Made by a program: the position numbers and the translations under genes. A model generated the notes under the pieces. The model worked only from the letters and a program-made list of their open reading frames with translations. It was not told the DNA's origin and searched no databases. From NCBI GenBank assembly GCA_964588985.1, contig CAZPQW010000015.1, positions 22,128 through 86,127 on the forward strand: 64,000 nt of DNA. Direction: 5' to 3'. The first letter of the stretch is position 1. Each line of letters opens with the position of its first letter. This document shows positions 7,574 to 64,000 of this stretch, in pieces. The DNA comes from an uncultured Solirubrobacteraceae bacterium. Lineage in GTDB: Bacteria > Actinomycetota > Thermoleophilia > Solirubrobacterales > Solirubrobacteraceae.

Positions 7574-7588
7574 GTCCCGCCTCCCAGC

Positions 7589-8914: not shown

Positions 8915-8991
8915 ATGCCCACACGATAGTCACCGTCGCCTCCTACGGCGCTGGTGTGGCCGTGGCGAGCTTCAGTAGGCTACCCCCGGTC

Positions 8992-9078
8992 ATGTCGCCG
9001 ACTTGGATCTGGATGCAGTTCGCGATCGTGATCTTCGTGCTGATCGGGATGGTCATCGCCATCGTCAAGCTTGTCTGA
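8992..9078 (+). CDS. 28-aa single-TM microprotein (MSPTWIWMQFAIVIFVLIGMVIAIVKLV)
   Basis: Host-like GC3 codons, TAGGCT box at 8976-8981, stop overlaps the TTG start of the next gene. Confidence 0.7.
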   Translation: MSPTWIWMQFAIVIFVLIGMVIAIVKLV

Positions 9079-10621
9079 GCCCCTCCTCAGCGCGCAGCCG
9101 TCACCGAGAGGCGAGCGGATCGCGATCTGCGTGCTCACCGTGCTCGCCCTCGCGCTGCGTCTCACGAGCCTGTCACGCAGCCTGTTCACCGACGAGGCCT
9201 ACTCGTTCGCGCTCGCCCAGCGCGGCTTCGGCCACATGCTCGCGCTGTTCGCCTACGAATCGAACGGCACGTTGTACTCGGTCGCGCTGTGGCCGCTGAT
9301 CCGCATCTTCGGCAGCGGCGAGGCGCTCCTGCGCGCCCCCGCGCTGGTCGCGGGAGTCGCCGGCGTGCCGGCGATGTGGTGGGCCGCACGCGGGCTCGCC
9401 AGCGGTCGTGTGGCGCTGATCGCCGCCGCCCTGCTCGCGGTCAACCCGATGGCGGTCTGGTACAGCCAGGAGGCCCGCGCGTATTCGTTCATCGTGCTCG
9501 CCTGTTGCCTTGCGTTCGGGGCGCTCGCCCGTGCGCTCGCACGCGAGGACGGCGCGCGTGGCGGGGCGTGGACGGGCTACGTGGCGGCGATGACGGCGCT
9601 CGCGTACTGCCAGCTGCTCGCCGTGCCGATCGTGCTGCCCGCGCAGGCCATCCTCGCCCGGCGCAGGGGCCGCGACGGGATCCGCTGGTGGGCCGGCTCG
9701 CTGCTCGTGCTCGCGGTCTGCTGCGTGCCGCTGCTGGTCATCACTGCGATCTCGCGCGGTCGGCGCAATCCGCTCTACTGGCTGCCGAAGCCGAGCCGTG
9801 GCCTGGTGGAGCTCGCGCTGCAGGAGTTCACCGGCGGGTTCTCCGGCGTGACGGCCGTGCGCTGGCTCACGCTCGCGCTCGGCGCCGCGCTGCTCGCGGG
9901 CGCGATCTGGGGTCTGCGACGGGCAACCGCTCGGGCCGTCGACCCCACGACGCTCGCGATAGCGGCCGGCTGGGCGCTGATCCCCCCGGCGCTGCTGCTG
10001 GCGGTCTCGGTGGCGGAGCCGGTGTTCTGGCCCCGCTACGCGATCGTCGCCCTGCCCGGCCTGTGCCTCCTGGGCGGGCTGTGCGCGGAGCAGCTCTGGC
10101 GACGCCGTCAGGGCATGGCGCTCGCGTTGGCGCTGCTCGCCGGTATCGCGCTCGTGGGCGCGTATGCGGACAAGCGCCAGGCGAGCGCGCTGCAGGAGGA
10201 CTGGCCGCCGATCGCGGCGTGGCTGAGGGCCGAACGCGCGTTGGGCGAGCCGATCGTGGTGGACAACGCGCTCGTGCTCGCCTCGATGGGCTACTACGAC
10301 CAGGCGTTCAAGGCGGGCGACGGGGAGCTGGTCGTGCAGGAATGGCACGACCAGCCGTTGCCGGCCGCTTTCTACGGCTTCAAGGACCGCACCGGCTATG
10401 GGAGCTTCCCCGACGGGCCGCCGAGCGAAGCGCTGTTCTCACGCCTCGCGACGGGCCCGCGGCGAAGCGCCTGGCTGATCGTGTCCGAGGTCGATCGCGA
10501 CCTCCAGGCCGACCCCAGGACCGGCGCCGCCGTCGCGTGGGCGAGACGCCACTGCGATGTGCAGGTTCGCGAAAGCGTGGGCGTCTGGGCGCTGCACGCG
10601 ACCGGCTGCCGTTCGAGCTAG
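9071..10621 (+). CDS. GT-C membrane glycosyltransferase (GT39/PMT_2-like)
   Basis: SLFTDEAYS acidic motif in first loop, YSQEARAY, many TM helices. Confidence 0.85.
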   Translation: MSEPLLSAQPSPRGERIAICVLTVLALALRLTSLSRSLFTDEAYSFALAQRGFGHMLALFAYESNGTLYSVALWPLIRIFGSGEALLRAPALVAGVAGVPAMWWAARGLASGRVALIAAALLAVNPMAVWYSQEARAYSFIVLACCLAFGALARALAREDGARGGAWTGYVAAMTALAYCQLLAVPIVLPAQAILARRRGRDGIRWWAGSLLVLAVCCVPLLVITAISRGRRNPLYWLPKPSRGLVELALQEFTGGFSGVTAVRWLTLALGAALLAGAIWGLRRATARAVDPTTLAIAAGWALIPPALLLAVSVAEPVFWPRYAIVALPGLCLLGGLCAEQLWRRRQGMALALALLAGIALVGAYADKRQASALQEDWPPIAAWLRAERALGEPIVVDNALVLASMGYYDQAFKAGDGELVVQEWHDQPLPAAFYGFKDRTGYGSFPDGPPSEALFSRLATGPRRSAWLIVSEVDRDLQADPRTGAAVAWARRHCDVQVRESVGVWALHATGCRSS

Positions 10622-10641
10622 CCGCGTCCGGCGAGCGCAAG

Positions 10642-11412
10642 TCAGCGGCGCCAGGGCCAGGGTCGTTGCGCAGCGCGCGCGGGCAGGTGTTCGAGCGCGG
10701 GCCGAGGGGGGATCGGTCCGCCGTGGAGGATCGCCGCGGGCACCTCCTCGGCGAGCCACTCCGTCAGCTCGCCCAACCCGGCCTGCTCGAGCTCTTCGCG
10801 GATGCCCGGGGCGCGGCCCTCGAGGTCGTGCGCGTCGGAGGCCACGTTGTGGACCAGCTCTTCCTCCACCAGCTGCATGGCGAAACGGCGCACCGTGCCC
10901 CCGAAGCGACCGACGAGCGACCCCGCGGTGATCGACGTCAACACGCCGTCCGCCACGAGCGAGCGCAGCATGCCGGGATCGCGATGGATCGCGGGACAGC
11001 GCTCCGGATGGGCGAGCAGGATGCGGTGCCCTCGACTCTGCAGCTCTGCCGCGACCGGCTCGAGCGTCGGGGCCACGGGTGCGAACGGCGGCTCGAGCAG
11101 GATCCACTCGCCCCCACCGAGACGCAGCCGCTCCAGCTGAGGACCCTCGATCTCCGCGACCGCGGTCATGGCGATCTCCGCGCCCGGGAGGATCTCGATC
11201 TCCACACCCTCCGCCGCGAGCCGCTCGGTCAGCTCGTCCACGCGAGCGCGGATCGTCTCCGGCCGGTTGGGGTAGCGCGCGCTCACGTGCGGCGTCGCGA
11301 CGATCGTTCGCACCCCCGCCGCGGCCGAGGCGCGCGCCAGAGCCAGCGAGCCCTCGATCGTCTCCGGCCCGTCGTCGATGCCCGGGAGCACGTGGCAGTG
11401 GAGGTCGATCAC
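10642..11412 (-). CDS. PHP-family protein-tyrosine phosphatase (CpsB/CapC/YwqE-like)
   Basis: DLHCHVLPGIDDG, ATPH, AHPER, ASDAH; GTG 11412 is 8 nt after TAACGT. Confidence 0.92.
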   Translation of the reverse strand: MIDLHCHVLPGIDDGPETIEGSLALARASAAAGVRTIVATPHVSARYPNRPETIRARVDELTERLAAEGVEIEILPGAEIAMTAVAEIEGPQLERLRLGGGEWILLEPPFAPVAPTLEPVAAELQSRGHRILLAHPERCPAIHRDPGMLRSLVADGVLTSITAGSLVGRFGGTVRRFAMQLVEEELVHNVASDAHDLEGRAPGIREELEQAGLGELTEWLAEEVPAAILHGGPIPPRPALEHLPARAAQRPWPWRR

Positions 11413-11477
11413 TCGGACATACGTTAGGTCAGAGACCGGTCCTCCCCCAACGCCCACGCGGCGGTTATGATCGTGGC

Positions 11478-11921
11478 GTGTTCAAGTCGATCGTTGTCGG
11501 AACCGACGGCTCGGAGACTGCCACGAAGGCGGTCCGTCAGGCGGCCGACCTCGCTCGCTCGGTGGGCGCCAAGCTCGAGCTGGTCAGCGCGTATGAACCT
11601 GTCCCCGCCCAGCGCCTGAGCGACGAACGTCGTCAGGCGCCCGAGGACCTGCAATGGGCGATCAACCCGCGCGAGGATGTCGACGCGACGCTCGAGGCGG
11701 CCGCGGCCGTCGCGCGCGAGGCCGGCGTCGAGGTGGACGTGTACGCCCGCCAGGGCGACCCTGCGGATGCGATTCTCGATGTCGCCGAGGAGCGCGAAGC
11801 CGACCTGATCGTGGTGGGCAACAAGGGCATGACCGGCGCCAAGCGCTTCCTGTTGGGCTCGGTGCCCAACAAGGTCTCACATCACGCGCCGTGCTCGGTG
11901 CTGATCATCCGCACCAGCTGA
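11478..11921 (+). CDS. Universal stress protein
   Basis: IVVGTDGS and DLIVVGNKG...LLGSVP motifs; TATGAT 6 nt before GTG 11478. Confidence 0.93.
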   Translation: MFKSIVVGTDGSETATKAVRQAADLARSVGAKLELVSAYEPVPAQRLSDERRQAPEDLQWAINPREDVDATLEAAAAVAREAGVEVDVYARQGDPADAILDVAEEREADLIVVGNKGMTGAKRFLLGSVPNKVSHHAPCSVLIIRTS

Positions 11922-11932
11922 GCGGCCGGCGG

Positions 11933-13015
11933 CTAGCTCGCCATCCACCACTCGCCGTCGAGCCGCGTCATCAGCGCGTGCCCGGAGGTGACGGCGCCGA
12001 GCAGGTCGGTGTCGCGGGCGTGGATCAGCGAGCGTGCGCTGAAGCGGAAGAGCGCCCCGCGGTGGGCGACCTCCGCCAGCAGGTTCGCCTCGACGCGCCC
12101 CTGCACCGCCGCGCCGCCGTGCGCGACGGCGTGCGCGAACAGGCTGTCGAGCACCGCGCCCATCTGGCGCTCGCGCGCCGCTATCTGCAGGACCTGGCAA
12201 GCCTCGTCCCGCTTGGCGTAGTAGATGTACCAGCCGAGCATGCGCCCGGCGGCGTCGCGGACGAGGCGCCGGTGCGGAGTGCCCCAGGTGCGGTTGTGGG
12301 GCAGCTCCGCGAACAGCCACTCCAACCCCTCGACCGTGTAGTCGGGCACCAGCCGCAGCGACTTCGCCACCGCCGGCAGGCTGTCCAGTAACAGCTCGGG
12401 CGTGAGCTCCTCGTCGGTCGTGGTCAGGCCCGTGGGCGCCTTGAAATAGCGCAGCCGCTCGGTCGGGATGTCCAGCAGCGGGAGCAGCCGCCGCGCGCGC
12501 GGCTTGATGTGCTCGCGCACGTGCAGGTTGATCTGCATTGCGCGATTGCCGGTGTAGCTAAGCGGGCGAAACACGCGCACCCACACCATGCTGCTCGGGT
12601 GCATCATCTGCCCGCCCACCAGTTCGAAGATCTGGCGGATCTCGTCCGAGGCGCCGTCGGTGATCGTGAGATCCTGCGCGCCGCCGAAGAAGCGCCGCAG
12701 CAGCCTCGCCCCGACACCGAGGTTGCGGACCTTGGGGTGGGCGATCAACGGTCCGCCCGCGGCCAGCCGCACAGGTCGGCCGTCGAAGCGCATCGGGCGC
12801 ACGTGCGAGCCGATGAAGCCGAGGATCTCCCCCGAGTCGTCGACGTACACGAGGCTCGGGATCTCGGGGTCGAACCAGGGGTTGTCGAACAGCGTGCGCT
12901 CGAGCCACGGCGCGAGTTCCGCGGGCGGTATGCGCCAGTCGGAGGCGTCCACGACTTTGTACAGCTCCGCCACCTCCGGGATCTCGTCCCTGCGCATCGG
13001 GCGCATCTCGCTCAC
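11933..13015 (-). CDS. Double-GNAT-fold acyl/aminoacyl transferase
   Basis: HPKVRNLGVG motif A; 360 aa, consistent with two GNAT domains; overlaps the carrier protein gene. Confidence 0.7.
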   Translation of the reverse strand: MSEMRPMRRDEIPEVAELYKVVDASDWRIPPAELAPWLERTLFDNPWFDPEIPSLVYVDDSGEILGFIGSHVRPMRFDGRPVRLAAGGPLIAHPKVRNLGVGARLLRRFFGGAQDLTITDGASDEIRQIFELVGGQMMHPSSMVWVRVFRPLSYTGNRAMQINLHVREHIKPRARRLLPLLDIPTERLRYFKAPTGLTTTDEELTPELLLDSLPAVAKSLRLVPDYTVEGLEWLFAELPHNRTWGTPHRRLVRDAAGRMLGWYIYYAKRDEACQVLQIAARERQMGAVLDSLFAHAVAHGGAAVQGRVEANLLAEVAHRGALFRFSARSLIHARDTDLLGAVTSGHALMTRLDGEWWMAS

Positions 13016-13263
13016 GAGGACACCTCCGCCGACTCGATCATCCTGGCCATGGTCGAGAGTGTGCGCAGGGAATCGATCTCCAGCGAGTCGAGCGGGATCT
13101 CGATCCCGAACTCCTGCTCGATCGCGAACAGCAGCGACACGAGCGTGAGGGAGTCCAGCAGCGCCCCATCGATGATGTCGAGGTCCGGCGCGGGCGCGGA
13201 CATGCTGAGCGTGTCCTCGAAGATGCGCCCGATGCGCGCGACGATCTCCTGTTCACTCGTCAT
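13012..13263 (-). CDS. Acyl/aminoacyl carrier protein
   Basis: 83 aa, acidic, LDSL phosphopantetheine site, EQEFGIEIP. Confidence 0.92.
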   Translation of the reverse strand: MTSEQEIVARIGRIFEDTLSMSAPAPDLDIIDGALLDSLTLVSLLFAIEQEFGIEIPLDSLEIDSLRTLSTMARMIESAEVSS

Positions 13264-14818
13264 TGGATAGCGCCGCGAATCGTTCTTTGAGCAGCCGTCG
13301 GTCGGCCTTGCCGCTCACGTTGCGCGGGAGCGATTCGAGCTCGAGCCATTGCGTGGGCAGCATGTAGCTAGGCAACGTGTCGGCAAGCGCGCTGCGCAGC
13401 TTGAGCTGGTCCAGCTCGGCGCCCACGCGTGGCGACCAGGCGCAGCAGATGCTCGCGCCCTCGAAGCCGTCGCTCTCCACCGCCACCACCGCGCATTCCG
13501 CCACGCCGTCGACTGCGGTGAGGGCGGTCTCGATCTCACCCAGCTCGATGCGGTAGCCGCGGCTCTTGATCTGGGAGTCCACGCGTCCCACGTAGTGCAG
13601 GACGCCGTCCTCGTCCACGCGTCCGAGGTCGCCCGTGCGATACAGGCGCAGGCCGCTGTCGTGATGGACGACGAACGCCGCGTCGGTCTTCTCCCGGTCG
13701 CGCCAGTAGCCGGGGCTCAGTCCCGCGCCCTCGATGTACAGCTCGCCGATCTCACCGGGCGCCACCGTCCGCAGCTGCTCGTCGAGCACGACGATGTCCT
13801 CGCCTGCGCAGGGAACGCCGATCGGGATCGGCACGGTGGTGTCCCGCGGAGCGCTCTCGACGGTGTGAAAGCTCGACGCGATCGTCGCCTCGGTCGGCCC
13901 GTACAGGTTCGTGTAGCTCGGCTGGGGCACGCGCTCCATCCAGTGGGCGAGCACCGCTGGCGCGAGCACCTCTCCGCACCAGATCACGCGACGCAGCGCG
14001 GGGAAGTCTGCCTCCTCGATCGCGTTTCCGCTGACCATGTAGGCGAACGTGGAGGGCACCGAGAACCACTGCGTGAGCTCCGAGTCGCGGATGAACCGCG
14101 CGAGCTGCGAAGGCAGCAGCGTGCCCGGTGGAACCAGGTGCAGCTCCGCGCCGCTGGAGAGCGTGCCGTAGATGTCGAACGTGGAGAGGTCGAAGTGCAG
14201 CGGCGGGTGGCCGGAGATGCGATCGCCCGGACGGTGGCCGAAGTGGGCGAGCGCCCAATCGAGGAACGCGCTCACCATCGCGTGTGTGATCACGACGCCC
14301 TTGGGCGTGCCGGTGGAGCCGGAGGTGAACAGGATGTGCGCGGGATCGGAGGGTGAGCTCGCGGTGGGGAGGGGCGCGTCGTCGAGGCTCGAGAACGCCT
14401 CGGGTCCGAACGCCGCCTGCTCGAGTGCGCCCTCGACGGAGCCCAGCTCCGTTCCGCCCAGCTCGAGCGTGTCCGCGAGCTTGCCCGCCTTCTCACACGC
14501 GAGCACCAGCCGCGGCTCGGCGGAGGAGAGAATCTTGTTCACGCGCGGGGCGGGGCTCGCGATGTCCACCGGTACGTACACGCCGCCTGCCTTGAGCGTC
14601 GCCAGCATGCTCACGATCGCCATCGGCGCCTTCGGCTGCAGCAGCACCACGCGATCGCCCTGACGGACGCCCCGTTCGAGCAGCAGCCGTGCGAGCTGGT
14701 TGCTCGTGCGCTCCAGCTCGCCGTAGGTGAGCTCCTGCGAGCCCATCGCCACGGCGCGTGCGGTCGGCCGCTCCCGCGCGGAGAGTGAGACTCGCTCGTG
14801 CAGCAGCATCGGCGCCAT
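13253..14818 (-). CDS. Stand-alone amino acid adenylation enzyme (DltA-like)
   Basis: FTSGSTGTPKG, FDLS, YGPTE, YRTGD, GYRIELGEIE, SGKADR. Confidence 0.92.
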   Translation of the reverse strand: MAPMLLHERVSLSARERPTARAVAMGSQELTYGELERTSNQLARLLLERGVRQGDRVVLLQPKAPMAIVSMLATLKAGGVYVPVDIASPAPRVNKILSSAEPRLVLACEKAGKLADTLELGGTELGSVEGALEQAAFGPEAFSSLDDAPLPTASSPSDPAHILFTSGSTGTPKGVVITHAMVSAFLDWALAHFGHRPGDRISGHPPLHFDLSTFDIYGTLSSGAELHLVPPGTLLPSQLARFIRDSELTQWFSVPSTFAYMVSGNAIEEADFPALRRVIWCGEVLAPAVLAHWMERVPQPSYTNLYGPTEATIASSFHTVESAPRDTTVPIPIGVPCAGEDIVVLDEQLRTVAPGEIGELYIEGAGLSPGYWRDREKTDAAFVVHHDSGLRLYRTGDLGRVDEDGVLHYVGRVDSQIKSRGYRIELGEIETALTAVDGVAECAVVAVESDGFEGASICCAWSPRVGAELDQLKLRSALADTLPSYMLPTQWLELESLPRNVSGKADRRLLKERFAALSNDE

Positions 14819-14836
14819 CCCAGCCAGCTCCTGCGC

Positions 14837-15829
14837 TCAGGACGCGTTCGCCCGCGCCTGCTCGAAAACCACACCGATGTGGTGCAGCTCCTCCTCGGAG
14901 GCGGGTATGTCGAGGATGAAAGAGTGAAAGCCGAGGTCGACGTAGCGGCCGAGCTCGGCCGCGACCTGCTCGTGGCTGCCGACCAGGTAGGGGCAGAACG
15001 TGGCGTAGTTCTCGAACGGCCACAGCCAGTAGGGGTCGTCCTCGACCGCCGTCTGCGCCGCCATGTCCGACAGCTGGCGATGCCAGTGTGAATCGGACAC
15101 CTTCATCGCGAGCTTGTGCGCGATCTGACCCTTGCGGTCGTCGGGGAAACGCTCGCGTGCGACGCTCCACGCCTCCTCGCCGCTCTCGCGCGTGACGATG
15201 CCCACACGTATCCCGGAGGCCTCGCCGCCCTGGTCGGCCTCTTCGCCGGAGCGCTTGGGGTACTTCACCGGCACCGCGCCGATCCGCCCGGCCGCCTCGA
15301 GCCCGGCCGGCGATGACCCGGAGATGAACAGGCCGGGTTGCAGATCGCTCGACAGCTCGGGGGCGAGACTCAGGTTTGACACCGAGTAGTACTCACCTGT
15401 GAAGGTGACGGTCTCGCCCGCCAACAGGCGTGTGACGATCTGGGTGTACTCCACCGTGCGCTCGTAGCGCTCGTCGTGAGGTGTGTCGTCACACAGCGCG
15501 AGCAGGTCGTTGCGAAATCCTCCCGCGACCATGTTCAGGTACACGCGACGCCCGTGGAGATACCCGAGCGTGCTCACCATCTTCGCGACCGAGTACGGAT
15601 GCATGTACGCGGACTGCACCGCCACGAGCGGCGCGAGGCGCTCGGTGTGTTCGATGACCGTCTGGGAGACGAGCCACGGGTCGGCGATGCCGTTGTCCGT
15701 GTAGACGAGCATCCCCTCGCATCCGGCCGCCTCGCTCCAGCGGGCCGTGTCGATCACGCGCTGTAAGTACTCGTCCGGCGAACTGTCCCGGGATTGCGGA
15801 CAGGTCGAGAATATGGCGAGGTCGGGCAC
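14837..15829 (-). CDS. LLM-class flavin-dependent oxidoreductase
   Basis: Luciferase-like motifs HPYSVAKMVSTL, LNMVAGG, FTGEYY, SGSSPAG; AGAGGA RBS. Confidence 0.88.
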   Translation of the reverse strand: MPDLAIFSTCPQSRDSSPDEYLQRVIDTARWSEAAGCEGMLVYTDNGIADPWLVSQTVIEHTERLAPLVAVQSAYMHPYSVAKMVSTLGYLHGRRVYLNMVAGGFRNDLLALCDDTPHDERYERTVEYTQIVTRLLAGETVTFTGEYYSVSNLSLAPELSSDLQPGLFISGSSPAGLEAAGRIGAVPVKYPKRSGEEADQGGEASGIRVGIVTRESGEEAWSVARERFPDDRKGQIAHKLAMKVSDSHWHRQLSDMAAQTAVEDDPYWLWPFENYATFCPYLVGSHEQVAAELGRYVDLGFHSFILDIPASEEELHHIGVVFEQARANAS

Positions 15830-15865
15830 GGTGTTGTTTTCCTCTTGGCCGCGAGTCTAGGCCAC

Positions 15866-17617
15866 TCAGCGCTTGCGCACAAGGAAATCCTCGAGGAACA
15901 GCGCCTCGATGCCCGTTCCCAGAAATGTGTCCAATGCCTCGGCGGGAGTGTTCACGATCGCCTGGCCTTTGACGTTGAAGCTCGTGTTGAGGAGCATCCT
16001 GCGTCCGGTGTGAGCGCCGACCGACTCGAGCAGCGTGTGAAACTCGCCGTTGTCCTCCTTTGAGACGGTCTGCACGCGCGCGGATCCGTCCACGTGTGTG
16101 ATCGCCGGAAGTCCCGCGCGATGCTCGGGGCGAACGTCGCGGTTGATCGTCATATAGGGGAGCGCCGTTCCGGCCGGGGCGTCGAACCAGCGATCGACCT
16201 CCTCGAGCGCAACGGCGGGCGCGAACGGACGGAACGACTCGCGCATCTTCACCAGCGCGTTCACACGGTCGCGCATGTCCGCCCTCCCTGGATCGGCGAG
16301 GATCGAGCGGTGCCCGAGGGCGCGAGGGCCGAACTCCATCCGCCCGCGGTACCACGCGATCACCTCGCCCGCCGCGATCAGCCGTGCCGCGGACTCGCAC
16401 ACCTCGTCCAACGACCCCAGGCGCGTCGCCTCGACACGGTCGTCGTAATCGCCGAGCGCGCTTTCGATCGACTCGACCGAGTGCGCGGGACCGTAGAACG
16501 GGGTGGGAGAGCGACGGTTGACGATCTCGCCGGCAAGCGATGCGCGATGCAGCGCCGCGCCGAGCGCGGAGCCATCGTCGGCGGCGGCCGGCTGGACGTA
16601 TATCTCCTCGAACGCGCCCGACGCGAGCAGCTTGCCGTTCGCGGTCGTGTTCAGCGCCACCCCGCCCGCCAGCGCCAGCCGCCTCATCGAGAGCTGCCTG
16701 CCGAAGTGCGAGCACGTGTGCTGGATGGCCCGATCGAGACACGCCTGCAGGCCGGCCGCCACATCCTCGTGCTCGGAGGCGATCTCCGACTCCGGCTCGC
16801 GCGCCGCGATCAGTCGTTCCCCCAGATACCGCCGCGCGGCGAGGTGGTTCTCGCGCTCCTCGCGCTCGCCGAGCTTCAACGCCGCGATGCTCCAGCCGCC
16901 GTCGTCGGTGAACCGCACCGCGTCGTCGAAGAAAGCGCGGAAGCGCTCGGGGTCTCCGTATGGGGCGAGGCCCATGATCTTGTACTCGTCGGAGTTGAAG
17001 TCGAAGCCGAGGTGCAGCGTGATGAGCGAGTAGAAGATTCCGATCGAGTCGGCCGCGGAGATCCTGTGGATCAGCTCCAGCGTCCCACCGCTCGTCCTGT
17101 AGATGGACGCTCCGTGCGCCTCGCCCATGCCGTCGATCACAGCCACCATGCACTCCTCCCAGCCGGAGGTGAAGTACGCGGAGGCGGCGTGGGAGAGATG
17201 GTGGTCGACGTGCCGAATGCGATCCGTGGGGAACTCCGGGAAAGCGTCGGCGACCCTTGCGGCGAAGGCCTGCGGTGAAAGCACTTCGCGATACAGCTCG
17301 CTCGAGACGGGGCTGAGGGAATACGGCACGCGATATGGCCCGTAGTCGAACGAGTGCACGATCTCGTCGACGTCCGACAGCCGCAGGCCGGCCTGCGCGA
17401 GGCACGCTTCGATCGCCCCGACCGGGAAGTCGCCGGTGTGCTTGCGGCGAGCGATGCGCTCCTCGGCGACGGCGGCGACGACCTCGCCGTCGATCACGAG
17501 TGCGGCCGCCGAATCGTGCCCCTGCGAGATGCGGTATTCGCGCTCCTGCAGATCGGGCCAGTGCCGACGCTTGAAATCCATCGTCCCGTCGATGCCGGAG
17601 ACGCCGACGATCCTCAT
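15866..17617 (-). CDS. O-carbamoyltransferase (NodU/CmcH/TobZ family)
   Basis: HDSAAA, EER, HHLSHAASA, DGMGE, EYKIMGLAPYG, EFGPRALGHRS, RESFRPFAP, NTSFN; start ATG 17617. Confidence 0.95.
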   Translation of the reverse strand: MRIVGVSGIDGTMDFKRRHWPDLQEREYRISQGHDSAAALVIDGEVVAAVAEERIARRKHTGDFPVGAIEACLAQAGLRLSDVDEIVHSFDYGPYRVPYSLSPVSSELYREVLSPQAFAARVADAFPEFPTDRIRHVDHHLSHAASAYFTSGWEECMVAVIDGMGEAHGASIYRTSGGTLELIHRISAADSIGIFYSLITLHLGFDFNSDEYKIMGLAPYGDPERFRAFFDDAVRFTDDGGWSIAALKLGEREERENHLAARRYLGERLIAAREPESEIASEHEDVAAGLQACLDRAIQHTCSHFGRQLSMRRLALAGGVALNTTANGKLLASGAFEEIYVQPAAADDGSALGAALHRASLAGEIVNRRSPTPFYGPAHSVESIESALGDYDDRVEATRLGSLDEVCESAARLIAAGEVIAWYRGRMEFGPRALGHRSILADPGRADMRDRVNALVKMRESFRPFAPAVALEEVDRWFDAPAGTALPYMTINRDVRPEHRAGLPAITHVDGSARVQTVSKEDNGEFHTLLESVGAHTGRRMLLNTSFNVKGQAIVNTPAEALDTFLGTGIEALFLEDFLVRKR

Positions 17618-17689
17618 CGCTCTGAGGTCCCTGCGGCTGTGACGAATCCGGTCGGGCCCATGGAAGCCTCGGTAGCCTACCTGGCCCGG

Positions 17690-18709
17690 ATGCGTCCTCT
17701 CGTGGTGCCATACCTGTACGTTCACGGCCCCGGCGAGTCGTTCGACTATCCCTCCAGCCGCTCGCAGGGACGATCCGCGCAGCTTGCGGCCCGCTACCTG
17801 GAGTGCGTGCTCGTGCAGGCCGGCTCGCTGCGACTGCGCGATGTCGACTGCGACGTGGCGCTCGTCACCAACGTTGCGGATCGAAGCGCCGTGGGCAGAC
17901 GCGGCGCGCGCCTGCTGGAGGAGATCGAGGCGCTTGGAGTGGAGGTCGTGCACGCCGACTACGAGCACCGTCCGTCCGTGGAGATCGCCACGTTCGCCGC
18001 CTCCAGGTACGTATTCGACGCGATCGCCGCGGTCGCCGGCGAGGGAGCCCCGCAGCGGCAGATCTGGCTCGTGGACGTGGACTGCGTGTGGGTCGATCCG
18101 GCGAAGGTGTTCGCCGCCGCGCCCGCCTCCCCGGGCATCGGCTGCATCCACATCCCCTACCCGCCCGACTGGGAGCTGTACGGGTTCACGCCTCAGACGA
18201 TGGGCGAGCTCGCGCATCGCCTCGGCGCCTCAGACACCTCACTGCGGTGGGTGGGCGGCGAGCTGCTGGCGGGAACGACCGTGGACCTGCGCGCGCTTGT
18301 CTCCGACTGCGAGCAGCTCGAGCGCGAGCTGGCCGCGCAGGGTCAGGCGCTCACGACCGAGGAGCAGCTGCTCTCGCTCGCGGGCGCGCTCGGACGCGTC
18401 CAGTTCCACGACATGTCGAGCGTCGCGCAGCGCATCTGGACCGGTCCGCGCCACGGCGCTCCCGCGGTCAGCTCGCCGGGGTCGCTCGGGCTGTGGCACC
18501 TGCCGAGCGAGAAGGGCCTCGGCTTTCGCCGCGCCGCGCGCGCGATCGTCTCGGGGCACGCCGGGCGCCTCGTTCGCGACCTCGACTCGCCGGAGCGCGC
18601 GCTCAAGCGGTTCAACGTGGCGGGCGCCGGCCTGCCCCGCCGGATTCGCGACGACAGCTGGCTGACGATGCAGCGGCTGCGCGATCGCCTGCTGTCCAGG
18701 GCCGGGTAG
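17690..18709 (+). CDS. Hypothetical protein, possibly a divergent GT-A glycosyltransferase
   Basis: DVDCVW (DxD), WVGGE, TEEQLLS, WHLPSEK; start uncertain (17660 or 17690). Confidence 0.6.
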   Translation: MRPLVVPYLYVHGPGESFDYPSSRSQGRSAQLAARYLECVLVQAGSLRLRDVDCDVALVTNVADRSAVGRRGARLLEEIEALGVEVVHADYEHRPSVEIATFAASRYVFDAIAAVAGEGAPQRQIWLVDVDCVWVDPAKVFAAAPASPGIGCIHIPYPPDWELYGFTPQTMGELAHRLGASDTSLRWVGGELLAGTTVDLRALVSDCEQLERELAAQGQALTTEEQLLSLAGALGRVQFHDMSSVAQRIWTGPRHGAPAVSSPGSLGLWHLPSEKGLGFRRAARAIVSGHAGRLVRDLDSPERALKRFNVAGAGLPRRIRDDSWLTMQRLRDRLLSRAG

Positions 18710-26789: not shown

Positions 26790-27937
26790 CGCGCGAGCGC
26801 TTCCTTCAACGCGGCGGCCACGCGGACCTGGTCCTCGTCGGTCATGTGCGGGTAGAACGGCAGCGTCAGCTCCGTGCGCGACGCCAGCTCGGTGATCGGC
26901 AGCGACACGTCGGGGAAGCGCTCGCTGTAGGCGGAGAAGCGGTGGATCGAGGGGTAGAAGATGCTCGTCTGGATGCCCAGCTCGCGCAGCCGGCTCGAGA
27001 TCTCCGCCTGGCGCCCGTCCTGCTCGATCATGATCGGCATCACGTAGCAGGAGGAGCCGGGGATGTCCTCGTCCTCGAACGGCACGACGATCCCCTCGAT
27101 CTCGCCCAGCAGCTGGCGGTAGCGCGCTGTCAGCTCACGGCGGCGCGAGATGTCGTCCTCCAGGCCACGAAGGCGCGAGAGCAGCAGCGCCGCGCGCGGC
27201 TCGTCGAGGCGGTAGTTGAAGCCGAGGCCGACCACGTCGTAGGTGTCGGTGCGGCCGCTGTGGCGGTCCCACGTACCGCTCGTCATCGCGTGCGACCGGC
27301 GCGAGCGCACGAACGCCGCCACGTCGTCGTCGTCGGTGCACAAGAGCCCGCCCTCGCCCACCGAGAGGACCTTGTTGGAGAAGAAGCTAAACGCTCCCGC
27401 GAGACCCCAGGTGCCGAGCTTGCGTCCGTGCAGCGTCGCGCTCGGGGCGTGCGCGACGTCCTCGATCAACGCGATCCCTCGCTTGGCGCACAGCTCGCTG
27501 AGACGGTCGGCCGCGCCCGCGTAGCCGGCGTAGTGCACCACGCACACCGCCTTCGTGCGCGGCGTGATGCGCCGCTCCACGTCCTCAGGGTCGAGGCTCG
27601 GGAGCTTGCGCGAGACGATCTCCGTGAACACGGGCGTCGCGCCGCAGTAGAGGACCGCGGCCGCCGTGGCAGCAAAGGTAAAAGAAGGAACGATCACCTC
27701 ATCGCCTGGACCGACGCCAGCCGCCAAATAGGCGAGGTGCAGCGCGGCGGTGCAGCTCGACAGCGCGATCGCGTGACGTGCGCCCAGCTGCTTGGCGAAC
27801 GCCTCCTCGAACTCGGCCGTCCGCGGGCCGAGCGTCAGCCAGCCGGAGCGCAGGGTCTCGGCGACCGCCTCGAGGTCTCGCGGCTGCAGCTGCAGGTCGA
27901 ACAGCGGGAGCTCGGGAAACGCGTTGGTCGCGGCCAT
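26786..27937 (-). CDS. DegT/DnrJ/EryC1/StrS sugar aminotransferase (paralog)
   Basis: SSCTAALHLA, EDVAHA, FSFFSNK, GEGG, GFNYR. Confidence 0.95.
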   Translation of the reverse strand: MAATNAFPELPLFDLQLQPRDLEAVAETLRSGWLTLGPRTAEFEEAFAKQLGARHAIALSSCTAALHLAYLAAGVGPGDEVIVPSFTFAATAAAVLYCGATPVFTEIVSRKLPSLDPEDVERRITPRTKAVCVVHYAGYAGAADRLSELCAKRGIALIEDVAHAPSATLHGRKLGTWGLAGAFSFFSNKVLSVGEGGLLCTDDDDVAAFVRSRRSHAMTSGTWDRHSGRTDTYDVVGLGFNYRLDEPRAALLLSRLRGLEDDISRRRELTARYRQLLGEIEGIVVPFEDEDIPGSSCYVMPIMIEQDGRQAEISSRLRELGIQTSIFYPSIHRFSAYSERFPDVSLPITELASRTELTLPFYPHMTDEDQVRVAAALKEALAR

Positions 27938-27957
27938 CGGCGAACGCGGCCCGTTGC

Positions 27958-34906: not shown

Positions 34907-36088
34907 TCAGAGGAACTCGGCCAGCCCGCTCGTGTCGAGGCCGGGAATCCCGGTGGCTCTGACCAGGCGCTCCGCGACCTTGCGCCAGGTGAACAGGCGC
35001 GAGTGCCGGCGCGCGAGCTCGCCCATCGCCCGCGCCGTCTCGGGGTCGGCGAGGGTCAGCATCGCCTCGATGATGCGCTCGGGCTGGAGTGGGTCCACCA
35101 CCAGCCCGCCAGGACCGATCATGGTGGCGGCCCCGCCGTCGGTGGTGCCCACGGAGGGGACGCCCGCACCGCCCGCCTCGACGTAGACGATCCCGGCCGG
35201 TTCGTGCAGTGAAGGCAGCACGAAGGCCGTGGCTTGGCTGTAGAGCTGAGCGAGGCGTTCGCGATCCGCGGGCACTCCGAGCGACAGGTGTCCGTGGGCT
35301 GTCACGCCCTCCTGGTCGATGCGGGGATGGCCTCCGACGACGTCCAGGCGCGCGTCCGGGTGAAGCTCCCGGACGCGCGCGAACGCCGCCAGCACCGCCG
35401 GCCCGTTCTTGCGCTCCCAGTCGCCTCCGACGAACAGGTAGCGGGGGTTGCTCCAGTCCCGCGGCGCCGGCTCGGGCCCCTCGTGGTTCTGGCCGAAGCC
35501 GACCGTGAACACCCGCTCGGGCGGGATCCCGTAGCTGCCGACGATGCTCTCGGCGACCCAGTGCGTGGCGCAGCAGCAGGCGACGGCCGATTCGTAGATC
35601 CTGCGCTGACGCGCGGCATAGCGCTCGATGTCCCGCTCGGAGAGGCCGCGGAGGTGCTCCCACGGATACGCCTGTACAGCCTGGAGCACGGTTGAGTCCT
35701 CGAGCGTCACGATCCGGTAGCGCGAAGGCAGGCGCATGTCGCTCCCCCGCTGCACGACCGCGTCCAGGTGCCCGGCGCGGGCGAGCCGGCGACGCATCAG
35801 CAGCGAGCGCGCGAGGATCGTGGGTCGTCCGAGCATCGCCGCGCCGTGAGCTCGCTTGGCGCTCGCGCGCAGGTCGGCGACGTCAGCCGGCCGCAGGCGC
35901 GCGGCGACGCTGCTCAGGTGCGCGAGCCTGCCGATGCGCGGCGGGAGCTCGCCGCTGATGGGGATCGCCTCCGCGACGACCTCCCCCATCGCGCGCAGCA
36001 GCCCGCCTGAGACTCCCGAATGGGCGACCTTGTCGGACGGGTCGATCCAGTCGGCCAGGCCGACCGACAGCGAGCTCGGCGAGCGCAT
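34907..36088 (-). CDS. Glycosyltransferase family 4
   Basis: FVGGDWERKNG, HEPAGIVYVEA; TATCGT 8 nt before ATG. Confidence 0.9.
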   Translation of the reverse strand: MRSPSSLSVGLADWIDPSDKVAHSGVSGGLLRAMGEVVAEAIPISGELPPRIGRLAHLSSVAARLRPADVADLRASAKRAHGAAMLGRPTILARSLLMRRRLARAGHLDAVVQRGSDMRLPSRYRIVTLEDSTVLQAVQAYPWEHLRGLSERDIERYAARQRRIYESAVACCCATHWVAESIVGSYGIPPERVFTVGFGQNHEGPEPAPRDWSNPRYLFVGGDWERKNGPAVLAAFARVRELHPDARLDVVGGHPRIDQEGVTAHGHLSLGVPADRERLAQLYSQATAFVLPSLHEPAGIVYVEAGGAGVPSVGTTDGGAATMIGPGGLVVDPLQPERIIEAMLTLADPETARAMGELARRHSRLFTWRKVAERLVRATGIPGLDTSGLAEFL

Positions 36089-59972: not shown

Positions 59973-60437
59973 ATGAGCGAGCACTTCTTCCCACGTGACG
60001 AGTACTTCATGCGCCTGGCCATGCGCGAGGCCGAGCGTGCGTTGGAACACGACGACGTGCCGATCGGCGCGGTGCTCGTGTGCGACGGCGAGGTCGTGGC
60101 GGCGGCCCACAACGAGCGTGAGCTGCGCCAGGACCCGACCGCACATGCGGAGATCGTGGTGCTGCGCGAGGCGGCGCGGCTCGGTGGCAGTTGGCGGGTG
60201 CTCGACTCGGTGCTCTACGTGACGCTCGAGCCGTGCGCGATGTGCGCCGGCGCGATCGTGCTCGCGCGCGTTCCGCGCGTGGTCTTCGGTGCGTCGGATC
60301 CGAAGGCGGGAGCGTGCGGAAGCGTCCTCGACGTGCTCGGCGAGCCGCGCCTGAACCACCGTCCGGAGGTCGCGGGCGGGCTGCTCGGACGGGAGTGCGG
60401 CGAGATGATCAGCGGGTTCTTCGCGTCGCGGCGGTAG
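59973..60437 (+). CDS. tadA: tRNA adenosine(34) deaminase
   Basis: VPIGAV, DPTAHAE, TLEPCAMCAGA, DPKAGA, LNH. Confidence 0.95.
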   Translation: MSEHFFPRDEYFMRLAMREAERALEHDDVPIGAVLVCDGEVVAAAHNERELRQDPTAHAEIVVLREAARLGGSWRVLDSVLYVTLEPCAMCAGAIVLARVPRVVFGASDPKAGACGSVLDVLGEPRLNHRPEVAGGLLGRECGEMISGFFASRR

Positions 60438-60505
60438 GTGCGGATCGAGCCGCCGTCTCACGTCCCTCGGCCGTCGAGATAATCTAGCCTTGTAGGTGTC
60501 GCCCT

Positions 60506-60545
60506 GGAGGGGTGGCAGAGCGGTTGAATGCGGCGGTCTCGAAAA
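60506..60545 (+). pseudogene. 5' half of host tRNA-Ser(CGA), truncated after the anticodon loop (putative attL)
   Basis: GGAGGGGTGGCAGAGCGGTTGAATGCGGCGGTCTCGAAAA followed by non-tRNA sequence (no T arm, no acceptor 3' strand); TAGCCT box upstream. Confidence 0.85.
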
Positions 60546-60854
60546 TCGGGTGCGCCAAAAGTTCGCAACTTCGAGCCATGGCGGCATTTCTGGCTTTCCT
60601 GAGCCGTTTTCCGCATGGTTGAGCGGGATTCGGGCGGTGTTTGCTGGTGGGGTTTGGAAGCTGCGAGACCGCTGGAAACCGCCTGAGACCGCTCAGTCCG
60701 CGGTTGGACTGGCGCGAGTTTGGCGCGAGAACTGGTCGTTGGGTTGAGGGTTTGCCGCCGCGGACTGGTTGCGGCAAACGGCCGATGGGGCAGCTCATCA
60801 TTTGCCGGTGCGCCGGTGTTTCGGATGGGCTGCGGGACTGGCGTAAAGCTGGAA

Positions 60855-60944
60855 CGGAGGGGGGGAGATTCGAACTCCCGGTACGCCAATCAGACGCACA
60901 ACGCTTTTCGAGAGCGCCGCATTCAACCACTCTGCCACCCCTCC
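60855..60944 (-). tRNA. Complete tRNA-Ser(CGA), 90 nt with long variable arm
   Basis: Acceptor GGAGGGG/CCCCTCC plus G discriminator, anticodon arm GCGCT-CTCGAAA-AGCGT, T arm GGGAG-TTCGAAT-CTCCC; TACCAT box upstream. Confidence 0.93.
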
Positions 60945-60960
60945 AGAAAATGGATGGTAG

Positions 60961-61017
60961 GGAAAATGTACAGGGATCTGGAAAATATCCAGGGCGCTGG
61001 AAAAGCTCGAGCGCGCT
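60961..61017 (+). repeat. Three imperfect 19-bp-period direct repeats
   Basis: GGAAAA at 60961, 60980 and 60999: GGAAAATGTACAGGGATCT / GGAAAATATCCAGGGCGCT / GGAAAAGCTCGAGCGCGCT. Confidence 0.7.
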
Positions 61018-61085
61018 CGGTATCGCCCAGGGCTCTTGTTGGCGCTTGCCCAAGATGGACGTACGTTATTATCAACCCTACAAGG

Positions 61086-62465
61086 ATGGTTGACACCGGT
61101 TTTGCGTCGGCGGCGGCGCTGCAGTTCGATGGATCGAGCCCTGCTGTTGCGTTGTGGCGGCTCGTTGGCGCCCTGACAGCCGAGCAGGCCCAAATCCTTG
61201 CGGGCGAGATCAAGCTGCTGGCGGGTGCGGCGTGGCCGGAGCAGCCATCCGGGCCGTCTCGTTCGCGGCTCGCGAAGGGCGTGAGGGAGAGGCACTCCCG
61301 ATGGTGTCCGAGCTACCACGATGAGGCGTGCGTGTGTTCCCCGCGGTGGGAGGCATGGGTGTACTCGCGCAACGACAGGGGCAAGATTCGAAAGACGTTC
61401 CCTGAGCGCTGGGAAGCGAAGGCTTGGCGTCACGAGCAGCTCGAGCTGGCGAGCATCGACCGGCTGCGAGCCCCGAGCCGTCTCTCGCTTGCCGAGGCAG
61501 GTTCGCGGTGGGTCGAGATGGCCCGCGACGGGCAGATACGCAATCGCTCGGGGCGACGCTATAAGCCGAGCGCGCTACGCACGATCGAGACCGACCTACG
61601 TCTACACCTTGCCCCGAGGCTCGGCACAAGGAGCATGGTCGGGGTCACGCGTGCGGATCTTCAGCGGCTTGTTGGTCGCTGGCTGGCCGCGGGGAGGAGC
61701 CCGAGCAAGATCCGGTCGATCATCAACGCCGCACGAGTGCTCTGGCGAGACCTGGATCTCATCACCGGGCACGACAACGAGCTGCTCATCGACCCGACCC
61801 GTGGTCTACGTCTTCCGGCGAGTACGGGGCGACGCGAACGGATCGCGACCCCCGATGAAGCCCGCAGGCTGATCGAGGCGCTCCCGCCGAGGGATCGTGC
61901 TCTGTGGGCAACCGCGATGTATGCAGGGCTGCGCCACGGCGAGCTACGCGCCCTACAAGTCCGCGACATCGACCTCAAGCGACGCCGCATCAACGTGAAG
62001 CGGGGCTGGGATCAGTACGAGGGCGAAATCGACCCCAAGAGCGAAAAGGGCACCCGCTCCACGATCATCACTAGGCCCCTGCTCGACCTTCTCGCGATGC
62101 ACCTGGGAGACGCCGGCCACGAGAACACCGACCTCGTATTCGGACGGACACAGACGAAGCCGTTCCAGAGCAACACCGTCAACAAGCGAGCCCGGAGGGC
62201 GTGGGTCACAGCGCGCAAGCGGGAAGACCGCCAGGACATGCTCCCGATGGCACAACGGCTCCGCGAGATCGGGCTGCAGGAGTGCCGCCACACCGCCGCC
62301 TCGCAGATGCTCGATGCCGGGATCCCGATCGACAAAGTCAGCAAGTTCATGGGACACGCCTCGATCACCATCACCATCGACCGGTACGGACACCTACTCC
62401 CCGGAGGCGAAGCCGACGCCACGGCTCTTCTCGACGCTTATCACCAGCGACACGAAGTTCCGTAG
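61086..62465 (+). CDS. Tyrosine recombinase / phage-type integrase
   Basis: AGLRHGEL, PKS, QECRH, MGH, DRYGHL; N-terminal H/C cluster (RHSRWC...CVC); start uncertain. Confidence 0.93.
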   Translation: MVDTGFASAAALQFDGSSPAVALWRLVGALTAEQAQILAGEIKLLAGAAWPEQPSGPSRSRLAKGVRERHSRWCPSYHDEACVCSPRWEAWVYSRNDRGKIRKTFPERWEAKAWRHEQLELASIDRLRAPSRLSLAEAGSRWVEMARDGQIRNRSGRRYKPSALRTIETDLRLHLAPRLGTRSMVGVTRADLQRLVGRWLAAGRSPSKIRSIINAARVLWRDLDLITGHDNELLIDPTRGLRLPASTGRRERIATPDEARRLIEALPPRDRALWATAMYAGLRHGELRALQVRDIDLKRRRINVKRGWDQYEGEIDPKSEKGTRSTIITRPLLDLLAMHLGDAGHENTDLVFGRTQTKPFQSNTVNKRARRAWVTARKREDRQDMLPMAQRLREIGLQECRHTAASQMLDAGIPIDKVSKFMGHASITITIDRYGHLLPGGEADATALLDAYHQRHEVP

Positions 62466-62471
62466 AGACGA

Positions 62472-63983
62472 TCAAGTCCTTGAAGCCTTGTGGCGTTGCT
62501 CGTTATCGTGTTGCTGCGTTCGGCGACTGTTGTCCTCTAGCCGAGCGACTCTCTCTCGTTTTAGTGCAATTTCACGCTGGGCCTCGCGGTAAAGGAGAAG
62601 CGCGATCAAAAATGCCGCGATGATTGTGATGATGCGAACGTCGATGTGACCGAGCGAGTCGGCGGGTGTGCCGATAAAGTTTGCCATTAGGGCAACGGCT
62701 ACGGTTACAACGGTGAGGGCCGTGAGGCCGCTCAGGATGTTACTCGTCCTTCGTTCTCTAGCTGCGGCCGCCTCTTGCACGCGCCGCTCAGCGATGCGTT
62801 GAAGCGTTTCTACCTTGCCCTCTACTGCTGCGACCAAATGGTCGAACTTCTGTACGTCGGCAATCGCATTCCAGATGCTTAGTTGTCCGCCCGCGAGATC
62901 GGTGAGCGCGCTATCTAGTCGTGCCCGTGCTTCCTGAACGCGGGTGTAGATCGTGAACATCCGCTCGGTGTCGGCTTCGAGGCTAGCCAGCGATTCGGGC
63001 GTTTGCCACTTATCGTTGTCCAGCAAAGCGAGCAGGCCCCGGTCCATCTCCATGAATACGGCGTAGTAGGCCCATTGCAGTTCGGTGAGTCGCATCGGCA
63101 CTTCCTGTGGGACAAAGGCGTCGCTTCCTCCCGTCACGATGACGCTCGAATCAATGCCTGGGATGAAGGTGCCATGCCAGTACCTGATTGTCGTTGAGAA
63201 AGTGGGGACAAATGGGCGAGCGAGCTCTCGTCGCCGCCTTGGCCCTCCCGAACGGCTTCCCGCAAGGACGAACACCGGGTGCAGCCACAACAAGCGACCC
63301 CACTCATCGTTGTTCGGCCCTGAAGAGGCAGTGGCGGAAGACGACTCGACCGCGGCAGGTAGAGCATTCAGAAGCGGCGTCAACCAGGGTTCCTGCCTGG
63401 CATCGGGGACGCGTCTAGCGACTACGTCGGCCAGCACACCGACCGTTTCGCGGGCGACCATCTCGTAGGACGCGGCCACTGGGGAGCGAACGTCAAGATT
63501 CGGGTCGCCAAGCAGATGTCCGATCGATTCGATGTTTCGGCGCGTTGCTCTGACGCTCAGGTGGACGGGTGCCGTGACGTCATAGACGCCCGTTATAACG
63601 CCGACGCCAAGGTCGTATAGTTCTACGCGGAGCTTGCGTAGACACCAAGTCCAACCGCTCAACGCGTCGTGAAGCCAACTTTGCTCGACATCCGGACGAC
63701 TCTTCTGGGCTTCTTCGAGCCTCGATATGAGCGATGGTCCTTCGCGACGCATCAGCACGAGCGGAACGAGACTCGAGTAGCCGCCCCCAGAGCCATAGGA
63801 CTCGACGCCGCGCCACTTGATGCTCTCGTAATCCCACCCGCCGCTTGGGTCGCGCTTCAACTCCTCTCCAAGCTGGCTCTGGAATCCGGTGTACTCAGAC
63901 ATTCTCACTTGCAAAGGGTGTCCTGTCAGGAATGGTCCCGTCAGGGCAACCTCGAATTGCTGCCATGCTCGCCGCACGCTCAC
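62472..63983 (-). CDS. Island cargo protein with coiled coil and two C-terminal TM helices (CorA-like tail)
   Basis: 503-aa ORF with atypical codon usage; long helical stalk then 2 hydrophobic segments. Confidence 0.7.
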   Translation of the reverse strand: MSVRRAWQQFEVALTGPFLTGHPLQVRMSEYTGFQSQLGEELKRDPSGGWDYESIKWRGVESYGSGGGYSSLVPLVLMRREGPSLISRLEEAQKSRPDVEQSWLHDALSGWTWCLRKLRVELYDLGVGVITGVYDVTAPVHLSVRATRRNIESIGHLLGDPNLDVRSPVAASYEMVARETVGVLADVVARRVPDARQEPWLTPLLNALPAAVESSSATASSGPNNDEWGRLLWLHPVFVLAGSRSGGPRRRRELARPFVPTFSTTIRYWHGTFIPGIDSSVIVTGGSDAFVPQEVPMRLTELQWAYYAVFMEMDRGLLALLDNDKWQTPESLASLEADTERMFTIYTRVQEARARLDSALTDLAGGQLSIWNAIADVQKFDHLVAAVEGKVETLQRIAERRVQEAAAARERRTSNILSGLTALTVVTVAVALMANFIGTPADSLGHIDVRIITIIAAFLIALLLYREAQREIALKRERVARLEDNSRRTQQHDNEQRHKASRT

Positions 63984-64000
63984 ACTTCACCCGCCGTGGG

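Follow-up and report, generated by a model that had tools for sequence, protein, structure and literature searches.

An integrative island that very probably disrupts and replaces the tRNA-Ser(CGA) gene of an uncultured Solirubrobacteraceae bacterium

Results

The locus downstream of tadA

In this study, we describe the end of a 64,000-nucleotide stretch of DNA from an uncultured Solirubrobacteraceae bacterium, in which a host tRNA-Ser(CGA) gene stops at its anticodon loop and is followed by a complete tRNA-Ser(CGA) gene on the opposite strand and by a tyrosine integrase gene (int). The whole stretch, hereafter the window, is G000:C15:22128-86127, that is, positions 22128 to 86127 of contig C15 of genome G000, and its position 64000 is the end of the contig. 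G000 is a draft metagenome-type assembly of 48 contigs and is 96% complete. tRNA genes were called with ARAGORN in the window and in all 48 contigs, with the Rfam tRNA model (gathering score 29) as a second test; protein families were assigned with Pfam and PADLOC, and Atlas clusters were consulted for the cargo open reading frame (ORF) of the window.

The host gene at the left junction is tadA, a member of the tRNA adenosine deaminase family (59973..60437, plus strand; Pfam MafB19-deam, 7.9e-41, and dCMP_cyt_deam_1, 1.9e-30), and 68 nt separate its end from the start of the tRNA-Ser(CGA) fragment at 60506-60544. The fragment consists of the acceptor arm, the D arm and the 5' strand of the anticodon stem (60506..60537, plus strand), in the same letters as the intact tRNAs of relatives, and ends with the anticodon loop CTCGAAA (60538..60544, plus strand). 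This plus-strand fragment received no tRNA call from ARAGORN and no match to the Rfam tRNA model at E<=1. The break is sharp and lies at the loop, because the 62 nt that follow resemble a tRNA 3' half no better than shuffled sequences do (210 of 500 shuffles equalled the observed score). An early idea that about 15 nt of the 3' half persist there (GTGCGCC, compared with the island-type variable arm) was given up, the likeness being at chance level.

A query made of tadA and the tRNA fragment was run against 41 related genomes and matched in 40 of them, with tadA leading unbroken into the tRNA gene in six (G024, G014, G004, G017, G019 and G010). The intact tRNA-Ser(CGA) of these six relatives has the 5' half of the window fragment, so the fragment is the 5' half of the host gene in its native place, with the bacterial attachment site (attB) inside the host tRNA gene and the left junction in its anticodon loop. 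Their variable arm differs from that of the complete copy in the window; the complete minus-strand copy is a different allele from the host gene.

Between the loop and the complete copy lies the P' arm of the island attachment site (60545..60853, plus strand), homologs of which stand beside tRNA 5' halves or beside the cores of island attachment sites (attP) in L075, L091, L074, L098, L022, L015 and contig C24 of G000. This 309-bp arm begins with about 60 nt that are not conserved and continues with a conserved part containing repeated short motifs, presumed to be binding sites of the integrase and accessory proteins. The complete tRNA-Ser(CGA) occupies 60854..60945 on the minus strand, inverted relative to the broken host gene; it is the only tRNA that ARAGORN calls in the window (as tRNA-Ser(cga)) and scores 56.6 bits with the Rfam tRNA model. 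Together with the fragment it forms a 45-nt inverted repeat that is 93% complementary, with 353 nt between the arms. One base of the D loop and position 30 of the stem distinguish the two, and in the complete copy a matching change of the 3' strand restores the pairing (C30:G40), giving the anticodon stem GCGCT/AGCGT where the fragment has GCGGT; the variable arm of the complete copy is likewise distinct (island-type). The preliminary description of this DNA, drawn from the letters of the window, had the tRNA after tadA ending directly behind the 7-nt loop, a complete inverted tRNA-Ser with the same anticodon about 310 bp further inside and a differing yet self-consistent stem, and had called the neighbourhood of tadA and tRNA-Ser(CGA) a known arrangement. 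The tRNA calls, the Rfam model and the shuffle test agree with it on the end point of the fragment, the complete copy indeed begins 309 nt on, its stem is compensated as described, and the tadA arrangement proves to be native in the relatives.

The tRNA and int diverge from an intergenic region of 140 nt (60946..61085) that contains a 19-nt direct repeat at 60961-60998, is 88% collinear with L074 and presumably holds the promoters of both genes. One consensus promoter-like match precedes the carried tRNA, at 61096-61068 on the minus strand, about 120 nt upstream. As a separate observation, a conserved motif, gatctacTAGCCT, lies 15-25 nt before the start of nearly all tRNA-Ser(CGA) copies of the relatives, host or carried (the corresponding stretch before the host fragment is window 60470-60505); it is likely to be a promoter -10 region. 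The carried copies of the window and of L074 are without it. The tyrosine integrase (61086..62465, plus strand; 459 aa) has an intact frame, matches Pfam Phage_integrase with 79 bits (4.9e-22) and is at most about 28% identical to the phage integrases listed.

The remainder of the genome

ARAGORN found 48 tRNAs in the 48 contigs, and the carried minus-strand copy is the sole tRNA-Ser(CGA) among them; tRNA-Ser(UGA), tRNA-Ser(GCU) and tRNA-Ser(GGA) are all on contig C1. No 3' half of a tRNA-Ser(CGA), host-type or island-type, was found elsewhere in the 48 contigs by blastn-short with both types and by a scan for attachment sites, which returned only the T arms of other tRNAs. The preliminary description had asked for such a genome-wide scan and held that an intact host-type tRNA-Ser(CGA), either at the right junction of the island (attR) or elsewhere, would contradict it; none is present in the 96%-complete assembly, and the attR of relatives is a bare 3' half. 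The same description had called TCG codons abundant, and TCG is in fact the commonest serine codon in 608 long ORFs rich in G and C at third codon positions (7304 of 19234, or 38%). The host may plausibly depend on the carried tRNA.

The junctions, for which a misassembly had also been considered beforehand, are both bridged by independent contigs from four other public runs that show no differences from the window; record 27 of run X7 corresponds to 60511-60944 and records 3 and 5 of run X4 to 60516-60884 and 60916-61830, again without differences. A 10-mer arm motif was tried as a marker of contig ends and rejected, as it is too common in this GC-rich genome and its two matches near ends (on contigs C4 and C26) are an overlapping housekeeping gene.

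Layout of related islands

Homologs of the integrase were collected from the genus, where 69 of 151 genomes have one at E<=1e-30, and from the wider genome contigs (the best 80 of 199 relatives); they come from metagenome-assembled genomes of Solirubrobacterales and Solirubrobacteraceae. The layout survey covered 30 loci with an integrase 52-90% identical to that of the window, and its sites were every CT[CT]GAA[AT] flanked by a tRNA 5' half (A), a tRNA 3' half (B) or a conserved arm (P, P'). A complete inverted tRNA-Ser directly upstream of int and diverging from it, as in the window, is present in 18 of the 30 loci, which answers the call of the preliminary description for a search of integrase homologs for the same layout. 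Downstream of int, 11 of these 18 have P-core-B (attR) and four have P-core-P', while ten have A-core-P' (the left junction, attL) upstream. Both ends are visible in five (L077, L087, L091, L093 and L099), and their islands measure 4.9-9.5 kb. The carried tRNA is inverted relative to the attachment site in all 16 loci that show any such site, and its anticodon is of the same type as the core (CTCGAAA or CTTGAAA) in 18 of 18, with CGA in four and UGA in 14.

The order seen in the window is found again in L075 (integrase 78% identical), where tadA is followed by A-core-P', by an inverted tRNA identical to that of the window and by int. The whole island can be followed in L091 of genome G114 (integrase 77%), which reads A-core-P', 7.6 kb of cargo, the identical inverted tRNA, int, a P arm of 170 bp, CTCGAAA and a host-type 3' half (54/54). 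The displaced 3' half that had been expected at attR is accordingly seen in relatives, and not in the assembly of the window itself. The carried copy of G114 is the only full-length near-identical match to the window tRNA-Ser(CGA) in that genome, which otherwise matches only with the 5' half at attL and with an untyped full-length sequence of 76%.

The attachment sites of the family (attL, attR and attP-like) diverge beyond the 7-mer of the loop plus 1-3 flanking bases, so that attP and attB share about 8-11 bp; in unrecombined attP sites the shared stretch is about 10 bp, made up of GGT and the 7-nt loop. The attR junctions read '...T/CTCGAAA/ACCGTT...' or '...GGT/CTTGAAA/ACC...', with no tRNA 5' half before the loop. 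A comparison of L076 (attP) with L077 (attR) is informative in this regard: their P arms are near-identical, and after GGTCTTGAAA the former continues into the P' arm and the latter into a tRNA 3' half. Since attP and attB share only these few base pairs and attP carries no tRNA half, the target could not be rebuilt by integration. In classical restoring islands attP includes the 3' part of the tRNA gene, whereas attL of the window ends at the loop. The carried tRNA of the window recurs with 100% identity in L074, L075, L091 (93-94 nt) and L022 (90/90), whereas the neighbouring TadA proteins are 78-84% and the integrases 62-90% identical; it therefore travels with the island.

Layouts of other kinds were also met. 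A complete co-directional tRNA-Ser 0.5-4 kb after int occurs in seven of the 30 loci (integrase 52-59%); in the co-directional sister clade formed by L094, L096, L097 and L022, the core and the host 3' half lie about 100-150 nt past the tRNA, so that the P arm is very short. Restoring relatives have a hybrid gene made of the host 5' half and an island-type 3' half, directly followed by the P' arm (G015, G008, L100), and L100/G152, G015 and G005 are also named as such. A restoring-type junction was seen at another tRNA as well, in L034:2760-3346 (G154), where about 1 kb separates an integrase of 75% identity from a complete tRNA-Trp(CCA) that leads directly into a P' arm of the family; the anticodon stem ends of this tRNA-Trp (GGT / ACC) match those of tRNA-Ser. 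In L078:700-14400 (contig C7 of G099), a CTTGAAA (UGA-type) core links the 5' half beside tadA to the P' arm, and the tRNA on the island is a tRNA-Ser(UGA); it may be a UGA-type island that targeted a CGA gene. Contig C7 of G099 also has a tRNA-Ser(CGA)-like gene elsewhere.

Two further places in G000 deserve mention. Contig C24, at 27660-27940 and 35480-35760 on the minus strand (L154:5661-5941 and 13481-13761), has two unrecombined attP-type sites, each made of a P arm, GGTCTTGAA[A/T] and a P' arm. They are 7.8 kb apart in direct orientation, flank ORFs that have Macro and CHAT domains, near a Mutator-family transposase, and contain no tRNA halves. There is no integrase of this family on contig C24, and the tRNA-Ser(UGA) of contig C1 is intact; the two sites may be the boundaries of a tandem array or passengers devoid of int. 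Contig C20 (48380-48560, minus strand) has a lone tRNA 3' remnant with variable arm, T arm and acceptor strand that is not from tRNA-Ser(CGA). It lies near distant tyrosine integrases at C20:31931-33091 and C20:49154-49789 and is probably the end of an unrelated island.

Carried tRNA genes joined to island arms

It had been suggested that the altered stem of the carried copy keeps it from acting as a target for integration. This is contradicted by L098 (site 10301, beside the C-terminal remnant of another int) and L022 (site 3153), in which 5' halves with the GCGCT stem are joined to P' arms. L074 (integrase 90%, locus span 7000-18550) goes further, as a carried tRNA with the stem GCAGC/GCTGT is split there. 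On the minus strand, at site 9836, a P' arm adjoins its 5' half, which still has the conserved tRNA-int spacer; on the plus strand, at site 18124 and thus 8.3 kb away, a P arm adjoins its 3' half, and the orientation of the halves is opposite. They flank int and a cargo with IetA/IetS and PD-Lambda-3_B, and a second, intact carried tRNA is found 2.7 kb away. After a simple nested insertion, the two halves would share a strand, so the arrangement of L074 points to an inversion between an attP-type site and the inverted tRNA of the island itself. On this evidence from gene order, carried tRNAs do serve as recombination partners.

The orientation of the tRNA relative to tadA also varies among the relatives. 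The split tRNA of G114, L090 and G011 lies inverted to tadA, an arrangement that we could not derive from a single core-to-core inversion. G022 and G023 have just one tRNA-Ser(CGA) close to tadA, which is inverted too and has no int that we could find next to it. Most simply, the target in G114, L090 and G011 would have had this inverted orientation before the island arrived. Repeated rounds, with a carried copy turning into the resident gene and later into the next target, would be compatible with these arrangements.

Cargo of the islands

Convergent with int, the window contains a cargo ORF of 503 aa with C-terminal membrane segments (62472..63983, minus strand) that has no match to any Pfam or PADLOC family; its nearest Atlas clusters, which give a lead only, are 'CorA-like' or unnamed. 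The contig ends 17 nt past the start of this ORF, and the island is visible over 3.5 kb only. A homolog of the ORF (59%) was noticed at the start of a metagenome contig (L155:62-1483), 4.4 kb from a UGA-type attL site, and the gene may be a recurrent cargo of the island family. An exact 40-nt pattern from the window end had no match in the metagenome contigs. The thought that the P arm of the attachment site had been truncated after int in the window was discarded, given that the closest relatives L074, L075 and L082 also have cargo between int and the P arm.

The 18 cargo ORFs of four related islands include a HigB/HigA-like pair, a STAND-type NTPase, a PIN protein and matches to IetA/IetS and PD-Lambda-3_B, together with Abi-like proteins, a LuxR-type regulator and a Mutator-family transposase. 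Pfam and PADLOC scans of these 18 ORFs found no phage structural, replication or conjugation families. Neither they nor the cargo ORF of the window contain a phage family that would mark a temperate phage, and the size of 5-10 kb and the defence-type cargo argue that the related elements are small integrative islands, not prophages.

Discussion

We consider it very probable that the island at the window end splits the host tRNA-Ser(CGA) at the anticodon loop, does not restore it and supplies an inverted complete copy in its place. The region from about 60538 to beyond the contig end would then be the left part of a small integrative island, whose tyrosine integrase would recombine a short core with an identical stretch of the host tRNA-Ser(CGA) downstream of tadA; we infer that strand exchange takes place at the anticodon loop CTCGAAA. 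With no tRNA 3' half in the island attP, the host gene would be left split, its 5' half kept at attL and its 3' half displaced to attR, where it is seen in relatives. The complete tRNA-Ser(CGA) that the island carries upstream of int, in divergent orientation, would make good the loss, and precise excision would rejoin the host halves A and B. The preliminary description had already proposed that the element disrupts and replaces the gene, and this proposal gains support from L091/G114, where both ends and the inverted tRNA are seen together, and from the attP sites devoid of a tRNA half. The sequences themselves show the anatomy, the sharp junction, the layout throughout the family, the minimal core and the agreement of the carried anticodon with that core; expression of the carried tRNA, a need for it and continued mobility of this copy of the island are inferences.

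Several observations weigh against this reading or against parts of it. The right part of the island and its attR are outside the assembly, which ends at 64000, and a second tRNA-Ser(CGA) could sit in a gap, because the assembly is a draft of 96% completeness. The host may also manage without the carried tRNA, as its tRNA-Ser(UGA) could decode UCG through wobble pairing. With regard to expression, the preliminary description gave the carried copy a -10 box of its own, which was not borne out: the TAGCCT motif that is kept before most tRNA-Ser genes of the genus was not found upstream of the carried copy of the window or in L074, and the sole consensus match is the distant one mentioned above. 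No excision product was found among the loose ends listed for the contigs of the four runs, which cannot show absence. Finally, 12 of the 30 loci surveyed have other layouts, namely the seven co-directional ones, one restoring (L100), one inversion isomer (L074) and three others.

The coexistence of restoring relatives with the window layout makes it necessary to ask whether the island is itself of the classical restoring kind, with the window showing an isomer that arose by inversion between two inverted loop cores and happens to have its complete gene on the minus strand. In the ground state, tadA would be followed by a full tRNA (host 5' half and island 3' half), by the arm and, beside int, by an inverted partial 5' half. 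Being inverted repeats, the cores could let the integrase or homologous recombination flip the segment of 0.4 kb between them. An inversion isomer is moreover known in L074, where the partial 5' half and not a full tRNA adjoins int. In 18 of the 30 loci, however, a complete tRNA stands beside int, and it is inverted to the attachment sites in all 16 of those that show any; the unrecombined attP sites read arm-core-arm without a 3' half. Within the complete copy, C30 pairs with G40, whereas the isomer would pair G30 with G40. Strand-changing joints, such as inversion would produce, were absent among the joints listed in the contigs of the four runs, although contigs cannot show absence. We therefore regard an isomer of a restoring island as unlikely.

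It is also conceivable that the plus-strand fragment is a decayed old duplicate, that the minus-strand gene is the host's own, moved by a rearrangement, and that the integrase lies beside it by coincidence, and the inverted tRNA-Ser(CGA) of G022 and G023, beside which no integrase was found, offers a parallel. Gradual decay would hardly leave a 5' half unchanged from the host type while everything past the loop is unrelated, and the break is at the same base in at least ten independent attL sites. Besides its island-type variable arm, the complete copy shows 100% identity between genomes that differ by about 20% in their host genes, and in complete relatives the far end is where the displaced host 3' half is found. 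An origin by decay and rearrangement is in our opinion even less likely than the isomer. The least credible account by far is an assembly chimera at a repeated tRNA sequence. A draft metagenome-type assembly in 48 contigs, an inverted repeat of the 5' half and a contig end only 3.5 kb on are circumstances in which a chimera might form, but the contigs of four other runs cover both junctions without differences, and L075 shows the same order, as do many assemblies (contigs of 0.1-3 Mb) in which cargo has been inserted. Misassembly is considered excluded.

Returning to disruption and replacement, a possible reason for the inverted placement of the replacement gene is that self-recombination would then invert the island rather than delete it; such a placement is not obligatory, because seven relatives are co-directional. 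A bolder proposal, to which we give low credence, is that the carried tRNA is a built-in inverted attB, which the integrase would recombine with attP-type sites, flipping int and cargo between a state of 'tRNA plus attP' and a state of two hybrid sites, and which would also be a landing pad for further islands. Small defence islands that repeatedly disrupt, replace, become domesticated and are targeted anew would in this way turn over the allele of the host tRNA-Ser and even its orientation relative to tadA. If this were true, the inverted placement would have been selected because self-recombination inverts rather than deletes.

The strategy itself is already published as tRNA-dependent lysogeny. 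Experiments have shown that actinobacteriophages such as Fionnbharth integrate in a tRNA gene through a 10-bp core without reconstruction of that gene and need their own cognate tRNA, and the phages described comprise Fionnbharth (K4), Cluster L, Cain (K6), Gaia (X) and Gordonia phages of CQ2/DL, restoring and non-restoring forms coexisting among close relatives (Guerrero-Bustamante and Hatfull, mBio 2024, PMC10865867). The islands share with these phages a tyrosine integrase, an attB in a host tRNA gene, an attP that has only a short stretch in common with it (8-17 bp in the phages) and arm-type sites that flank the core. They differ in that no phage genes were seen, with complete relatives of 4.9-9.5 kb that carry defence or toxin-antitoxin cargo, in the low identity of the integrase (at most about 28%), in the target, which is tRNA-Ser(CGA) or tRNA-Ser(UGA) with the anticodon loop itself as core, and in the host, an uncultured Solirubrobacterales lineage. 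In addition, the tRNA is inverted here and tightly linked to int, whereas the tRNA of Fionnbharth overlaps gene 37 elsewhere in its genome (PMC10865867).

Other known systems resemble the islands in part, so far as the excerpts of the respective papers tell. Classical tRNA islands (Islander, PMC4383910) likewise have a tyrosine integrase, crossover in the anticodon loop, int beside the attachment site and a displaced 3' fragment; the islands described here differ from them in that attP has no 3' half, the target is not regenerated and a separate complete tRNA is carried instead. In prophage Lj965 of Lactobacillus johnsonii and in phage-related regions of Sinorhizobium meliloti, the tRNA is similarly not rebuilt and a cognate tRNA is carried (PMC10865867, PMC11476347, PMC12429752), but those are prophages or phage-related regions and belong to other phyla. 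For the inversion that we propose in L074, there is a precedent in the integrase inversions between tRNA copies of Thermococcales ('Flipping chromosomes in deep-sea archaea', PMC5495485), although the resemblance goes no further: there an archaeal plasmid integrase brings about large chromosomal inversions and there is no replacement tRNA. Among the titles and abstract openings listed by a literature search on tRNA-dependent lysogeny, none was on non-phage islands or on Solirubrobacterales. What is new here, going by the sequences compared, is the distant integrase lineage, the occurrence in islands of 5-10 kb with defence or toxin-antitoxin genes that are not phages, the tRNA-Ser(CGA)/(UGA) targets and the indications of renewed use of the carried tRNA as an attachment site.

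These findings extend a recently described phage mechanism to non-phage islands of uncultured soil Solirubrobacterales and to a distant integrase lineage, which argues that the strategy is general and arose more than once. Arm, tRNA and int together form a compact natural module of about 2 kb. Programs that find islands by a regenerated tRNA and a displaced 3' fragment would mis-handle such loci, taking them for a 'pseudo-tRNA' beside tadA and an ordinary tRNA on the other strand. With regard to the biology of the hosts, the islands suggest a route by which core tRNA genes may be replaced horizontally.

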